Shown here: in pieces, positions 3,114 to 53,763 of the stretch
Numbering within the stretch: position 1 is the first letter of the stretch
Layout of the letters: each line of letters starts with the position of its first letter
DNA from: Octopus vulgaris
Lineage: Eukaryota
Assembly: GCA_951406725.2 (NCBI GenBank)
Contig: OX597820.1
Span: 29,016,001 to 29,080,000 of the forward strand
Reading direction: 5' to 3'
DNA: 64,000 bases
Notes under the pieces: generated by a model
Databases searched by the model: none
What the model was told of the DNA's origin: nothing
Seen by the model: only the letters and a program-made list of their open reading frames with translations
Position numbers and translations under genes: made by a program

Positions 3114-3134
3114 CACACACACACACACATATAT

Positions 3135-3960
3135 ATGACTCTACACTGTTTGTCTCTCTCTCTTACATTTACTTCGCATTCTACGTTGATCTGTCCCCTT
3201 CTCTCTCTCTTCTCTCTACTCATCCTCCTTTTCTCTTGCCTCTGATTCTTTGGTCTACTCTTCCCCTACCCTTCCATTTCTTTGTCTTGCCTTGCACTCA
3301 CAGGTCAATCTTTGACACCCATCCCTTCTCCCCTCTCTAATTCCTTCTTTCTCTCTCTTCTCCCCCCTTGTTGCTTTCGTCCCTCTTCTCTCTCTCTTCC
3401 TTCCTTTGCCTCCCTTTCTTTTCTTTTCTTTTCTCTCTTCTCCGTCACGTGACTGCTGGCCAAAATCCGCCTTTCGGCCTCTGACCAGCGCCGTGACAAC
3501 ATCGTTGTCCTTGTTCGCCGTTAAGGCTTCGCCGTTAAGGCTTCGCCGTTAAGGCTTCGCCGTTAAGGCAATTTTTCCAAAATACGCCAGCTAAACTTGT
3601 TTGCACTGTTATTAGTCGTAAGACACCTGCTGTTTTTACCATTATCGCTTTTGTATTTCATTATTGTTTTTTGTTTTTTATATTCGCGTGGCACCGTCCG
3701 TTTTGCTGTCCCTGTGTTCGTATGCATTCGATCCTTCTTCCAGGAAATCTACGCTCCTAGCTTAGTTTTTCTAATGCTCGTTGCTTAGTTTTTCCTGGAG
3801 GGCTGGCCGGATCTAGTAATCTCAAGATTAATCAGCCGAAATTACTACGATGATCCGGTTCTTGACTGAAGACTGAGGGCTTCGAATGTCCTGTCTGTGT
3901 TTGTTGTATCGCCTTCTAAGTGTTATGCGTTCTTGTCACAGTTTGTATTTTTTTTACATA
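3135..3960 (+). mobile_element. Non-coding repeat F (CT-rich tract plus permuted HHR-like motif, 3' end at (TA)n)
   Basis: Colinear homology with 52776-53470 on the minus strand (CGTGAC..TGGCC, GCTTAGTTTTTC, CTCAAGATTAATCAGCC, TGCGTTCTTGTC..TTTGTATTTT). Confidence 0.75.
3801..3888 (+). ncRNA. Candidate non-circularly permuted hammerhead ribozyme
   Basis: TAGTAAT-C(3821)-TCAAGA .. CAGCC-GAA-ATTACTA .. TCTTGA-CTGAAGA(3866-3872): stems III and I close exactly on the three core segments. Confidence 0.6.
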
Positions 3961-3962
3961 TC

Positions 3963-4011
<49 letters not shown>

Positions 4012-20511: not shown

Positions 20512-20581
<70 letters not shown>

Positions 20582-22038
20582 TCGAAACTGTGGTGATATT
20601 TGGTCAACAACTGATGATGGATAGAGCATTCTTTCGCGTTTTTTCGTTCTTCCCGCTAAATTTTTTTCTTGCCCTTTTGTACCATCTTTTTATATGCGTG
20701 TATATGTATGTACGTATGTATGCATGTATGTATGCATGCATGCATGTGCATATACATACATCTGATTTCATATGCATGAGGGAGAGATTAGTTTGATATG
20801 GTGAAGGAATGTGTGCAGGTTTAGTTGATAACTTGTCATTCTGCGTTAGAAGAATTATGATAATCCATTGATCTCCCCCTCTTATAAACCTCTGCGGGCA
20901 CTGATGAGAGACTTAATCAACGCTAGAATGGAGAATCAATGCCTTCGGCAGGTTTGATTGTCGTAGCAATGTTGAGAAACGTGTTTCAAGAATGAGTTGG
21001 GTTCCATTTGGTTACATTGCTCAAAATACTTCCGGATAATTCCGTTTAAGATGACAAACATCAATTTCTATAGATAAGTTGGTATTACGAAATTACGTTA
21101 TAAAGACACTTGCGCAAAAGAAAACTTCGCTTTCCTAAACATTCGTTTTATCAGGCTCCTTTTCTTTGCTGACACCAACGAAAACTATTATGTTAGGATC
21201 ACAGTCTCAAAGTCGTGACTTCAATTCTTGACCGGCTGATGCGATGGTCCTTTATTAAGGCATTCAATTTCTCGTTGCTCCAGTCAAATCAATAAATGAA
21301 TACCAGCTGTGTACTGCCACAGCATACTAGCTCCCTTCAGTAGTCGCCTCCTTGACATTCCGCTGGATGGGTCAAACCTATTTCTGCTGTAAACTACATA
21401 TGAACCTAATACATTTAGTTGAAAGAGTGATACAAACAACATCAGATTATCTTGCAAGTGACGGATAAACTCAGCACTTTGTACCCCGATTCCTGAAATC
21501 TATTTGTGCCTGCCTGAAATTTATTTGTGCCCTCAGACATAAGATAAAAATCCTTTATCTCGAATCCTTCAAAATCGTTTCCTGTCTCCACATCGTTAAG
21601 AAGATGCTAGTAAGTATTGCCAAGCCTAATAGTCTTCAGTGATAGCTGATGCATTATGTCGTCGACTTTCGAAACCTGCAGACTGGCTCACCTACTCTCC
21701 ACCATTAACTTTAATCTTCACATGTGGTCTGTATTCTTGCAACACTAAACCATTACACGTTCCTTAATAAATTCACAACTAAGTGTAGAGGATTCTTTCT
21801 TAAAAGCTTGGGTATTCTGGGTTGCTGTCAATATTAGAACCTCCTTCACACTTAATTCATTTAAACTTTTCTTCAACGAAATTCTTTGATCTCCAAAGCT
21901 GGTTGGCTGGCTGGCTGGCTGGTTGGCTGGTTGGTTGGTCAGCCAGGCGGTCAGTTTGGTTAATTGCTTGGAGCACCGATGCTTGCTTCACTGGTAATTT
22001 TTATTACCCACTCTCTCTCTCCCTCCCTCCCTCTCTCG

Positions 22039-30056: not shown

Positions 30057-30668
30057 CATTTCTACTCTAGGCACAAGGCCCGAAATTTTGGGGGAGGGGG
30101 TCAGTCGCTTAGATCGACCCAGTACGCAACTGGTACTTAATTTATCAACCCTGGTAGGATGAAAAGCAAAGTCAACCATGGAGGAATTCGAACTCAGAAC
30201 GTAAAGATAGACGAAATACCACTAAGCATTTCTCCCGGCGTGCTAACGTTTCTTATTCCTTTACTGCCCACAAGGGGCTACACACAGGAGGCACACAAGG
30301 ACAGACAAACGTTATTAGTCGATCATATCGACCCCAGTGCGTAACTGGTACTTATTTAATTGACCCCGAAAGGATAAAAGGCAAAGTCGACCTCGGCGAA
30401 ATTTGAACTCAGAACGTAACGGCAGACGAAATACCTATTTCTTTATTACCCACAAGGGGCTAAACACAGAGGGGACAAACAAGGACAGACATAGGTTATT
30501 AAGTCGATTACATCGACCCCAGTGCGTAACTGGTACTTAATTTATCGACCCCGAAAGGATGAAAGGCAAAGTCGACCTCGGCGGAATTTGAACTCAGAAC
30601 GTAACGGCAGACGAAATACCGCTAAACATTTCGCTCGGCGTGCTAATGTTTCTGCCAGCTCGCAACCT
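30057..30668 (-). mobile_element. SINE family A trimer
   Basis: Three units inside one 16-bp TSD TATGTGGTCTTTTATT (30041 and 30669). Confidence 0.92.
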
Positions 30669-33256: not shown

Positions 33257-35988
33257 GGAACAATAGATCTCGAAGCAGATACAGTTATAAGTAACAGCGT
33301 GTGAACACTGGGTTAAAAATATTTTCGATAAATAAAAACAGGCAACAGGATTATTTTATGTTCTCTTGAAATTACTAAATTGTCATGGCGTCAGAACACA
33401 TCGTTTAATTTTGAATTTTTACTCGGCTTGATGTCGTCACCGTCATCGTTATCGTTGCTTTCATCGTATTTGTTTTTGTTGTTACTGCTATTGTTCTTTT
33501 GTTCCGTATCAGCCCTGATTCAGTCGTATGATGAAACGCGCCGTCACCTGTAACTACCCCACTTTTTTTTCTCGAACACTGTGTGTCAAATACCATACAG
33601 CCCAAGACATTTGAGTATGGTTTAAGACAGGTTTGGCTTTTGTTTCATGCTAATCAAGTGACAACGTAGAAAGGCGGTGAGCTGGCAGAAACGTCAGCAC
33701 GCCGGGCGAAATGCTTAGCGATTCGTCTGCTCAGTCTGCCACTACGTTCTGAGTTCAAATTCCGCCCAGTTTGACTTTTGCCTTTCATCCTTTCGGGGTC
33801 GATTAAATAAGTACCAGATACGCACTGGGGTCGATATAATCGACTTAATCCGTTTGTCTGTCCTTGTTTATTCTCTCCGTGTTCAGCCCCTTGTGGGTAG
33901 TAAAGAAATAGGTATTTCGTCTGCCGCTACGTTCTGAGTTCAAATTCCGCCCAGGTCGACTTTGCCTTTCATCCTTTCGGGGTCGATTAAATAAGTACCA
34001 GTTACGCACTGGGGTCGATATAATCGACTTAATCCGTTTGTCTGTCCTTGTTTGTTCTCTCTGTGTTCAGCCCCTTGTGGGTAGTAAAGAAATAGGTATT
34101 TCGTCTGCCGCTACGTTCTGAGTTCAAATTCCGCCCAGGTCGACTTTGCTTTTGGGGTCGATAAATTAAGTACCAGTTACACACTGGGGTCGAAGTTAAC
34201 GACTTAATCCCTTTGTCTGTCCTTTTTGTGCCCTCTATGTTTAGCTCCTTGTGGGCAATAAAGAAATAAGACAGTGGCTCCCTCGTGATTTTGCTGTTGT
34301 TTTGACAGTGTTATTGTTGTTTTTCTTCTCCTGTTTTTTCTTCTTTTTCTTCTTCTCCTCTACCTTTTCTTATGATTAAATCTGATGTTCCTTATACAAA
34401 TGACGATGATGATAGTGATGATGGATGTAATAACGATGACGACCACGATGACGAGGCCGATGACAACGGCAATGACGATGACAATGACGATAGTGAGGAT
34501 GAGAATGATAACGACGACGATGACAAAAATAATGACGATGACTACGACGACAACGATGATGTTGATGATGACAACGGCGGCGACGACGACAACGACGATG
34601 ACGTCATCAGTGAGATCAATGTTGCTTATTTTTTGCTGCTGTTATTGATGCTGCTGCTACTGCTGCTGCTACTGCTGCTGCTGCTATTGCAGTGGATGCA
34701 ACGTTCTTGTTGATGCTGTCTTCTCTGTTATTTCATTTGTTAATGTTGCGCTTCCTGTTTTTGAAGTAGTCCACGACCACCACGACGGTGATCAGATCGC
34801 TACTTTCTTCTGTTGTTTGTTTTTGTTTATTTTTGGTTTGTTTTGTTTTTGTTTTTGTTTTTTGTTTTCTTTTCTTCTATCTGTTTTACATATTTATTAT
34901 GTTGAAACCTGTGTTATGGAAAGCTTTGAAGTTTTCTTGGTTTCTTTCACATCTCCGCTCCTCACCACCTCGCTCGAAGAATTGAGTCAATGAAAAAACT
35001 TTTCGACTTTGAATAATGATATCTTAGCATATTTAGCCGGCGTCAAATGGAAGGCAATTGCACACACATGCAATCACACACACACACACACTCACACACA
35101 CACACATACACACACACACATACACACACACTCACACAAACACAAATACTCACATACATTCATACACACATACATAAATACACACATACACACATATACA
35201 CATACACACACATACACTTACACACACACACACACACACATAAATTAATACCATTATTATGATGCAACTCTTAATGTTGGTGAGCTAGCAAAATCGTTAA
35301 CAAGCCGGACAAAACGCTTAGCGACATATCATCCGTCTTTACATTTTGAGCTCAAATTCCGTCGAGTTCGCCTTTGCTTCTCATTCTTTCGCGGTCGATG
35401 AAACGATTAGCAATCAAGAACTGGTCTTAATGTAATCCTCTTGCCCTTCTCCTAAATAAAAAAAATGCTGATTCGGTGCTAAAATTTTGAAATGATTATT
35501 TTGTAATCATTTAAAGCTGCGAGTCGCAGAATCGTTAGTGCATCTGGAAAAAAAAAACCCCGTTGCGACATTTGTTCCCACTCTTTTCTTTTTGAGTTTT
35601 TGGAACAATAGATCTCGAAGCAGATATAGTTATAAGTAAAAGCGTGTGTGAACACTGGGTTAAAAACCTTATCGATAAATAAAAACAAGCAACAGAATCA
35701 TTTTACGTTCTCCTGATATTTCTAAATTTCTAAATTCTTATGGCGTCAGAAATTTGTCAGAATACATCATTTAATTTTGAAGTTTTACTAGGCTTGTCGT
35801 CACCGTCATCGTTATCGTTGCTTTCATTGTATTTGTTTTTGTTGTTACTGCTATTGTTCTTTTGTTCTGTATCAGCCCTGATTCAGTCATCGGTATGAAG
35901 AAACGCGCATCACCTGTAACTACCCTATTTTCTTTTTCTCGAATAGTGTGTCAAATGCCATACAACCCAAGACATTTGAGTATGGTTT
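33257..35988 (+). repeat. Direct duplication of about 370 bp (33257-33622 and 35602-35988)
   Basis: Both copies run from GAACAATAGATCTCGAAGCAG to CCCAAGACATTTGAGTATGGTTT with small indels. Confidence 0.9.
33670..34270 (+). mobile_element. SINE family A trimer
   Basis: Two AAGAAATA|GGTATTTCGTCTG junctions at about 33910 and 34094. Confidence 0.92.
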
Positions 35989-52776: not shown

Positions 52777-53470
52777 ATAAAATACAAAATGGGACAAGAA
52801 CGCAAAGCATCCGGACAATTAGGTGATACAAAAAGGGACAACAAAACATCCAGACAGACGATAAAAAAACACGGACGGGTCATTCGAAGCCTTTTATCTT
52901 CAGTCAAGAACCGGATCATTCTCGCAATTCCGGCTGATTAATCTTGAGATTGCTCCAATCTGGCCAGCCCCAAGAGAAAAACTAAGCTAAGAGCATTAGA
53001 TTCCTTGGAAAAAAGCATCGAATGTATACGAGACAAGGACGGAAAAACAGACGATGTTACACGAATATAAATACAAAAGTACAATAGAAAAACAATAATA
53101 ATAATGATAACAGGACATATCAACAGAGGTCTTTCAACTGGGGACGAATTGAATTCAGGTGGCCTGTGTGGAAATGAAGCCTTACGGCAGAGGGAAGAAT
53201 GTCGATGTGGCAGTGACCATGATCAAACACAAAAAGGGCTAGCAGACGGCCAACGGTCACGCGAGAAAAGAAGAGAGAGAAAAGGAGGAACAAATTAAGG
53301 AGTGGAAGATGAGAGAGAGAGTGCGTAGAAGTAGAGAGATGGGAGAATCAAGGAGTGGCGAGAAAAAGGAGAGAGACAGGGACATAGTGAAGTGCAGAGT
53401 GAGTAAGAAAGGCAAAGAAATGTGAGAGAGAGGGAGGAGAAAGAGTTGAAAAAGTCGTACAAAATTTAGT
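52776..53470 (-). mobile_element. Non-coding repeat F, second copy
   Basis: Homologous to 3135-3960; its 3' terminal 29 bp recur at 53543-53571. Confidence 0.75.
52881..52970 (-). ncRNA. Second copy of the permuted HHR-like motif (GAAA mutated to GGAA)
   Basis: Minus strand GCAAT-C-TCAAGA-TTAAT-CAGCC-GGA-ATTGC..TCTTGA-CTGAAGA-TAAAA-GGCT. Confidence 0.55.
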
Positions 53471-53763
53471 GAAATGTGTACATACATATAAGAGAACAAA
53501 GTGTACGTACGCCGCTATATATAGATATATATATATATAAAATAAAATACAAAATGGGACAAGAACGCAAATACGTTTCAACCCTAAAGTTGTGGGCATG
53601 CTGGGGCAGTGTCAGTGTAAAGGTATCATACTCTACTGCTCTACCGACTGAGCTATATTCTCAAACCCACACATACATACACACACACATATAGACACAC
53701 ACATACACACACACACATACACACACACACACACATACACACATACACACACACACACACACA

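Follow-up and report, generated by a model that had tools for sequence, protein, structure and literature searches.

A predicted hammerhead-type ribozyme of split topology in octopus retroelements and in Naiad retrotransposons

RESULTS

A hammerhead-type motif with a displaced stem II strand

A 64,000-nucleotide stretch of the Octopus vulgaris genome (contig OX597820.1, forward-strand positions 29,016,001 to 29,080,000; here called the window) contains a hammerhead-type motif in which all of the core bases are present, four helices covary, and the 5′ strand of stem II is found at the 5′ end of the motif. Judged from sequence, the motif is quite probably a double pseudoknot that forms within a single copy and is cut after C3821. 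The motif lies on the plus strand and begins with the stem II 5′ strand GGCTG (3801 to 3805; G10.1 is 3801), which is displaced to the 5′ end. There follow the 5′ strand of helix X (3806 to 3813), which bridges stems I and II at their distal ends and corresponds to helix "I" of Eckert et al. (PMC10085705); the stem III 3′ strand TAGTAAT (3814 to 3820), the last base of which is U16.1 (3820); C17 (3821), with cleavage predicted between 3821 and 3822; and the stem I 3′ strand TCAAGA (3822 to 3827). A linker from stem I to stem II (3828 to 3832), which spans 1 to 7 nt among 22 representatives and is about 3 nt in type SGC (PMC10085705), leads to the stem II 3′ strand CAGCC and core GAAA (3833 to 3841; C11.1 is 3837 and G12 to A15.1 are 3838 to 3841), the stem III 5′ strand ATTACTA (3841 to 3847), a 4-nt bulge (3848 to 3851), and the helix X 3′ strand (3852 to 3859; duplex energy, −12.8 kcal/mol). 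The motif closes with the stem I 5′ strand TCTTGA (3860 to 3865) and the core CUGAAGA (3866 to 3872), with no stem II strand after A9. An initial annotation of the window had reported the segment order AUC block, GAAA, and CUGAAGA at 3801 to 3888, and each segment was indeed located there; the fourth helix, 3806 to 3813 with 3852 to 3859, had been overlooked.

Hammerhead cores are divided into blocks C, G, and S by Eckert, Friedrich, Weinberg, and Weinberg (2023; PMC10085705). The core elements CUGANGA, GAAA, and UH were all present in this copy (copy 1), in the block order S-G-C and not in the cyclic order C-G-S of types I, II, and III. A four-part descriptor matched only copy 1 within the window and matched none of 30 window shuffles. 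No Rfam hammerhead model matched positions 3700 to 3960 at an E value of ≤10, and therefore standard models miss the motif, as the initial annotation had predicted; across the whole window, the Rfam matches listed (150 of 399) were just microsatellite-driven, miRNA-like matches. Nested minimum-free-energy folding of the motif gave no signal (z of −0.45), a flat result that is expected for pseudoknots yet offers no support either. A canonical type I hammerhead built from CUGAAGA and downstream sequence was considered and rejected, as it had no stem II, GAAT instead of GAAA, and no stem I partner.

A second copy of the motif was found on the minus strand (52897 to 52969; C17 at 52948) and carried the previously noted replacement of a U-A pair of stem III by C-G, as well as a single A-C mismatch in helix X. 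Its GGAA, also noted previously, is a private A13-to-G change (among the 30 loci closest in sequence to copy 2, 28 have GAAA), and the change likely inactivates the predicted ribozyme of that copy. Elsewhere in the window, a 5′-truncated copy of a related family (20576 to 20617, plus strand) began directly after (TA)n and contained only the GAAA and CUGAUGA blocks.

Covariation in four helices

Covariation was scored in an alignment of 24 diverged copies of the host repeat (family F1), which were hand-picked across subfamilies from 75 distinct extracted copies and were all chosen beforehand as carrying GAAA and CUGANGA. In one version of the alignment, five rows with a long stem III sit one column off for one pair. 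With the upstream strand forming stem II, the four-helix model paired in 93.8% of 576 cells and two-sided changes were observed at 14 of 24 pairs; slid controls paired in 15 to 52% of cells and 0 of 500 shuffles paired as highly, a control that is not a probability because the aligned copies are related. For further pair types, the alignment did not exceed shuffles (425 of 500). Individually, stem I was 95.1% paired with two-sided changes at 4 of 6 pairs, stem II was 96.7% paired (2 of 5 pairs), helix X was 90.1% paired (4 of 8 pairs), and stem III was 95.0% paired (4 of 5 counted pairs). Moreover, U16.1 was invariant in 24 of 24 copies, and position 17 was C, A, or U (17, 5, and 2 copies, respectively) but never G. 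When 40 copies were instead picked by similarity at the 5′ end with the core disregarded, UH, GAAA, and CUGANGA were in register in 38. Covarying stems and retention of GAAA and CUGANGA by the family, on which the initial annotation had made its reading depend, were both observed. We conclude that the structure is real and selected and that it is a hammerhead by its core and helices, outside types I to III, SGC, and CSG.

The host repeat resembles a non-autonomous Penelope-like element

Copy 1 resides in a non-coding unit of about 870 nt that belongs to F1 subfamily A, occupies positions 3134 to 3965 of the plus strand, and is missing about 60 nt at its 5′ end. When compared by blastn against the window, a full unit from another locus (L007) matched copy 1 at 89% over 870 columns. 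The 5′ half is CT rich and the middle is T rich, followed by the ribozyme motif and a 3′ tail (3873 to 3965) that includes GGCT at 3878 to 3881, the proposed alternative stem II strand. Immediately downstream is a (TA)n microsatellite (3966 to 4011), the target at the 3′ junction, and like junctions were found at other F1 loci. A 14-nt unit is repeated four times exactly within copy 1 (3514 to 3569, plus strand) and recurs in other copies, from once to several times each. Copy 2 belongs to subfamily B, was assembled from blastn pieces (52779 to 53569, minus strand), and has a short stretch of its own 3′ tail repeated upstream at 53521 to 53569.

F1 is abundant, as the pattern CAGCCGAAA-N12..30-CTGAAGA had 7,252 matches in the genome versus 2 for the reversed pattern. 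Genome DNA searches returned 1,361 and 2,575 first-look candidates, 40 of which were scored in each case, and 11 of the first 40 scored F1 copies were identical over 121 nt. F1 copies are inserted in (TA)n, and partial tandems built from a non-coding unit of 713 to 903 nt are frequent among them. The 5′ ends vary and the 3′ end is fixed; subfamily A insertions stop 141 to 145 nt past the predicted cut in 24 of 29 scored loci. Partial-tandem, pseudo-LTR structure and variable 5′ but fixed 3′ ends are the marks of Penelope-like elements (PLEs), whereas the open reading frame (ORF) of the Naiad clade (N-terminal GIY-YIG, CxC, DKA, and C-terminal reverse transcriptase [RT]) has no counterpart in the non-coding F1 unit. 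Insertion into (TA)n is not diagnostic of Naiads because Neptune-type families of this genome share it. We conclude that, by its sequence organization, the F1 unit has the anatomy of a non-autonomous PLE, and the earlier proposal of a mobile, non-coding retroelement is borne out by a (TA)n-targeted, partial-tandem unit with no ORF.

No RT was contiguous with any F1 copy in the loci examined, the F1 unit had no homology to two intact Neptune-type families of this genome, and no homology to Naiads was detected. Neptune-type ORFs near F1 copies in two loci (L160 and L161) were considered as partners and rejected as separate insertions. Naiad RT matches in the genome were decayed, with a longest open frame of 292 to 300 amino acids (aa); a genome DNA search with a Naiad RT stretch brought back an inserted repeat, and a protein search by word index, for which a decayed RT piece served as the query, found no match. 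One Neptune-type PLE family is very young (L161:528-2444, minus strand, and loci L205 to L234): of 150 matches scored, 139 were identical across 143 aa. Its members have a CT-rich 3′ untranslated region (UTR), a minimal hammerhead of type I whose core reads UUGAAGA, and a (TA)n target. This family is a candidate mobilizer of F1. Additional intact Neptune-type ORFs of about 781 aa that end in (TA)n were found at L545 to L548, L550 to L552, and L549, and their 3′ ends contained neither F1 homology nor the permuted motif. The window also contains tandem units of 184 to 185 nt (30254 to 30620 and 33734 to 34268), which resemble an octopus SINE-like repeat.

The split topology recurs in other octopus families and in Naiads

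A strict descriptor, defined by S-G-C order, a 5′ stem II strand, and helix X, matched 145 times in 333 loci of the octopus genome, most of which had been fetched by motif or similarity, versus 0 times when reversed. Family F2 (739 pattern matches versus 1 for the control) consists of non-coding partial tandems of 898 to 926 nt. Family F3 (446 versus 0), the pattern of which is a motif of the published octopus Naiad, lies downstream of a decayed Naiad RT with DKA, YDFS, and RYIDD motifs. In families F4 and F5, the motif follows an RLE-type non-LTR ORF, 90 to 340 nt past its stop codon, and LINE loci carry the split hammerhead in the 3′ UTR (L201 [minus], L191 and L408 [both plus], L411, L412, L407, and L402). 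Homologues of the F4/F5 ORF carry RVT_1 and have uninformative names; from its motifs, we take the ORF to be HERO-like. The 5′ stem II strand of F4 sits in a run of G and is often decayed.

Naiads were described as being without a canonical hammerhead, and eight were marked "HHR_half_core" (Craig et al. 2021; PMC8557442). In consensus excerpts from that work inspected by eye, the split form was present at the 3′ end of Naiad_Obim, Naiad_Ovul, Naiad_Amil, and Naiad_Anas, at the 3′ end of Naiad_Aacu with one mismatch, and in two unnamed entries, while a third unnamed entry had it with a 2-bp stem I. Octopus and coral consensi are among the entries with the split form. An intact type CSG was seen in Naiad-3_Nbra and in four entries of File S5 that are nematode Naiads by file position. 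The consensi were located by three words, with matches across line breaks missed, and thus the tally is not a count. Near part 16 of File S5, one entry had S-G-C order with a stem II that folds locally, as a hairpin placed after the cleavage block and before GAAA, and in that variant, stem II is likewise detached from CUGAAGA.

To extend the comparison beyond these consensi, a stop-free Naiad RT piece from the octopus genome (L286) was used as a query and 79 metagenomic Naiad-RT loci were recovered; in three homologues that were inspected, N-terminal GIY-YIG, CxC, and DKA were present. A loose descriptor matched the sense strand of 21 of the 79 loci, always downstream of the RT match (18 split and 3 CSG), and found no type I hammerhead among them. 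Counts of the split form rest on the strict descriptor because the loose descriptor also matched controls (1, 4, and 4 of 79). The strict descriptor matched 18 of 79 loci, in each case on the sense strand and downstream of the RT, and matched 0 of 79 antisense, reversed, or complemented sequences, 0 of 1,580 shuffles, and, among the matches listed, 0 of 122 viral loci with both core words in order. One viral locus (L532) held a weak candidate for contiguous SGC. The split motifs of the Naiad loci differ from F1 in stem sequence, and because some of the 18 are close relatives, the number of independent events is lower than 18. Of the 59 loci that extend 250 nt or more past the RT, 21 had a permuted hammerhead of any kind, as did 10 of the 29 that extend 800 nt or more.

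The same position was occupied differently in sister elements. Intact type CSG was found in 3 of 79 Naiad loci (L345, L359, and L388), and 2 of 17 scanned loci that lacked the motif had a Twister-P5 at the motif position on the plus strand (L354:3631-3689 and L358:2011-2069), each reaching the Rfam gathering score and separated by about 475 to 530 nt from a Naiad-type RT match on its 5′ side. In a quick RT tree of 70 rows, from which 12 of 79 loci without a 200-aa open RT core were left out and in which the label "none" pools true absence with truncated contigs, the split form was found on each of the two main branches, and all three CSG loci grouped into one clade. The initial annotation had confined any novelty to one mobile family, a limit that no longer holds, as the topology is common to animal Naiads and RLE-type LINEs of this genome.

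Many F1 copies begin just past the predicted cut

The 5′ ends of F1 copies were mapped in the first 90 of 4,016 matches, taken in genome order, with a pattern anchored wholly 3′ of the predicted cut, and the 5′ reach of each copy was measured against natural long F1 copies. Twenty-nine of the 90 copies ended within 0 to 20 nt past the cut and 7 ended in the preceding 40 nt (binomial P of about 2e-8). In equal 20-nt windows, the counts were 28 versus 6 (P of about 1e-4), and they were 25 versus 4 once internal deletions, inversion junctions, and one TA-inflated row were dropped. Another 23 of the 90 copies had apparent 5′ ends in a second pile, 140 to 169 nt upstream of the cut, which may mark a real boundary or may arise because these copies diverge from the reference copies. 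The pile-up at the cut fits templates whose 5′ end is the cut and from which a few bases are lost during insertion. Separately, a step in depth was seen near 3820 to 3830 in four contig sets, but contigs show neither ends nor levels and subfamily divergence is a confounder.

The pile-up could instead be due to stalling of RT at a structure, and the conserved fold might bind protein, stop RT, or depend on a protein for activity rather than cleave usefully on its own. Minimal PLE hammerheads cleave weakly in vitro (Cervera and de la Peña 2014; PMC4209133), cleavage by the hammerhead of an anole PLE is protein dependent and dispensable for insertion in vitro (PMC11167929), and the motif is absent from many Naiad loci. 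Stalling, however, would be expected where RT first meets helix X, at +21 to +38, and only 3 of 90 copies ended there; truncations stopped at the cut. Furthermore, the core bases and the exclusion of G from position 17 were kept across different families, and sister elements fill the same slot with hammerheads of the validated type CSG or with twister. We consider a fold without useful self-cleavage to be unlikely, albeit the most credible of the alternatives, and predict, with good confidence, that the motif is catalytically active.

The upstream strand forms stem II

Another way to account for the motif is as an ordinary type SGC ribozyme in which stem II is made with the downstream GGCU past a 5-nt bulge, the upstream GGCUG being either incidental or a competing off-switch. 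Indeed, the initial annotation had left stem II ambiguous, and GGCT located 5 nt past the core could pair with AGCC in 65 to 66 of 75 distinct F1 copies, with an energy of −6.5 kcal/mol. The upstream duplex, however, is stronger (−9.7 kcal/mol) and contiguous with helix X. Moreover, the downstream strand was 83.3% paired in the alignment, a value reached by 94 of 500 shuffles, and its pairing was broken in an entire subfamily in which the upstream strand persists. Among the 22 representatives, a downstream stem II of at least 4 bp was possible in 5 and was limited to 1 bp or less in 15, whereas the first pair of the 5′ stem II was G10.1-C11.1 in 22 of 22, a pair that the descriptor did not require. 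Pairing of C11.1 with the base right after A9 was seen in 2 of the 75 distinct F1 copies and in 6 of 22 representatives. Finally, a 5-nt insertion exceeds the 1 to 2 nt never surpassed at the A9/stem II step in the examples of Eckert et al. (PMC10085705). An ordinary type SGC is thus improbable and the ambiguity is settled in favor of the upstream strand; since stem II uses that strand, the motif is not type SGC and the chain is opened between A9 and G10.1.

The initial annotation had also proposed a pseudoknotted or a dimeric ribozyme, and only the pseudoknot was supported. Were tandem copies to act in trans, CUGAAGA would come from one copy and stem II, GAAA, and the cleavage site would come from the next. 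Head-to-tail partial tandems of the unit do exist, the CSG order would be recreated if CUGAAGA were joined to the GGCUG of the following copy, and canonical PLE hammerheads, a type I form in which stem III is tiny and palindromic, have been proposed to work as dimers (PMC4209133). The two halves, however, would be about 800 nt apart, whereas one copy closes all four helices within 72 nt, and stem III of the split form is 4 to 7 bp, non-palindromic, and complete within one copy, unlike that of dimer-type hammerheads. Action between copies is therefore less probable still. Finally, a chance arrangement riding on an amplified repeat, though copy number alone would explain recurrence inside one family and the nested folding score is unremarkable, is highly improbable and already contradicted by the covariation and descriptor controls, as two-sided changes occur in all four helices and the arrangement recurs with other stem sequences in Naiad loci but not in shuffles or the listed viral loci.

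DISCUSSION

Here, we describe a hammerhead-type motif that appears to be new in topology relative to the open-access literature searched. Our overall interpretation, which we favor over its absence by a modest margin of confidence, is that opening the chain at A9/G10.1 creates a seventh natural topology, that this topology is the "missing" ribozyme of Naiads across animal phyla, and that it was adopted by non-coding PLE derivatives and RLE-type LINEs. Non-circularly permuted ribozymes would then be abundant working parts of animal genomes, with the cut setting the 5′ ends of retrotransposed copies and the paired halves favoring circularization.

In the predicted fold, helix X and stem III together make a hairpin, the 5′ half of the loop pairs with the 3′ flank as stem I, and the 3′ half pairs with the 5′ flank as stem II. 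Folding would be possible only once CUGAAGA has been transcribed, after which the RNA would be cut after C3821 and the 5′ piece would stay held by about 18 to 20 bp of stems II, X, and III. AUC triplets gave poor co-transcriptional cleavage in one viroid hammerhead (PMC1636495). Tandem transcripts might thereby be resolved into unit-length RNAs with paired ends, either nicked or religated into circles, and the unit RNAs might be copied in trans into (TA)n by the RT/endonuclease of an active PLE, giving rise to 5′-truncated and partial-tandem copies. The 3′ end of the insertions differs from the cut site, an offset that would be in line with circular or internally primed templates as considered for the anole PLE (PMC11167929). 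We think it likely that the ribozyme module came from a Naiad-type element, and the split form could have arisen from CSG if a unit was duplicated in tandem and the outer halves of the pair were lost.

If the interpretation is true, there is a hammerhead topology beyond the six thought possible and the core tolerates a backbone break at A9/G10.1. Non-circular RNA permutations would also pass from rare environmental contigs to animal genomes, with thousands of copies in this one. The split form offers a testable answer to why Naiads were reported without hammerheads and to what the "half cores" are, and CSG duplication with loss of outer halves would be a simple route between permutations. Moreover, the 5′-end pile-up at the cut would be a rare genomic sign of a PLE-type hammerhead acting in vivo, a matter that in vitro work left open. 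Genome-wide ribozyme descriptors should include the split form.

The closest relatives of the motif are the permuted hammerheads of Eckert et al. (PMC10085705), and that work substantiates the precedent for non-circular permutation to which the initial annotation had alluded. Six block orders were considered there because the blocks were assumed to be uninterruptible, including block C, CUGANGA with its flanking stems. Examples of SGC and CSG cleaved in vitro at 0.004 to 0.19 per min, and each validated SGC and CSG has a helix joining stems I and II. The split form shares with them a cyclic block order, a short stem I-II linker, the joining helix, and an identical core, and by sequence comparison, it is a circular permutation of SGC and CSG, with the A9/G10.1 step as a third point at which their ring is opened. 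In SGC, the stem II strand directly follows CUGANGA, whereas in the window motif, it lies at the 5′ end, and the CSG order of C, S, and G with an intact block C is not that of the window element. In the oligonucleotides of Eckert et al. inspected by eye, the spacer between stem III and helix X is absent on one strand in SGC-3 and on the other strand in CSG-1; each X-III link alone is compatible with cleavage because SGC-3 and CSG-1 each close one. Both links are closed in the split form, whereas validated SGC or CSG ribozymes close just one. The break at A9/G10.1 could slow catalysis; in PLE hammerheads, an additional base is tolerated at this step (PMC4209133).

In the text of Eckert et al., the sources of SGC and CSG are metatranscriptomes and metagenomes, with none from the genome of a known organism (PMC10085705). 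The Eckert forms are thus environmental and of unknown host genome, whereas the split form resides in an animal genome in thousands of copies linked to retroelements. The two CSG examples there are metagenome DNA without context and may also be Naiad ends. Within the open-access literature searched, we found no account of the split topology or of permuted Naiad hammerheads, and neither is described in passages of PMC13725137 and PMC10162972.

Retroelements that carry ribozymes provide a second comparison. Canonical PLE hammerheads and the split form alike lie near the 3′ end of a pseudo-LTR, have a G10.1-C11.1 pair, and tolerate extra bases at 9/10.1; in this genome, the canonical type I form was found in the active Neptune-type PLE and the split form was not. 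Naiads and F1 share (TA)n targeting, partial tandems, and the split topology at the end of the element. Non-LTR retrozymes are non-coding, tandem-prone, ribozyme-bearing elements that have been proposed to be non-autonomous PLE derivatives (PMC7229834; Li et al. 2026, bioRxiv 10.64898/2026.07.22.740005), and F1 is like them in the first three respects. Accumulation of circular RNA is a trait of non-LTR retrozymes, whereas F1 is known here from assembled contigs alone. Moreover, non-LTR retrozymes carry a type I hammerhead in each monomer whereas F1 carries the split S-G-C topology, and, unlike retrozymes, F1 has a unit of 0.7 to 0.9 kb that is mostly dispersed and 5′ truncated.
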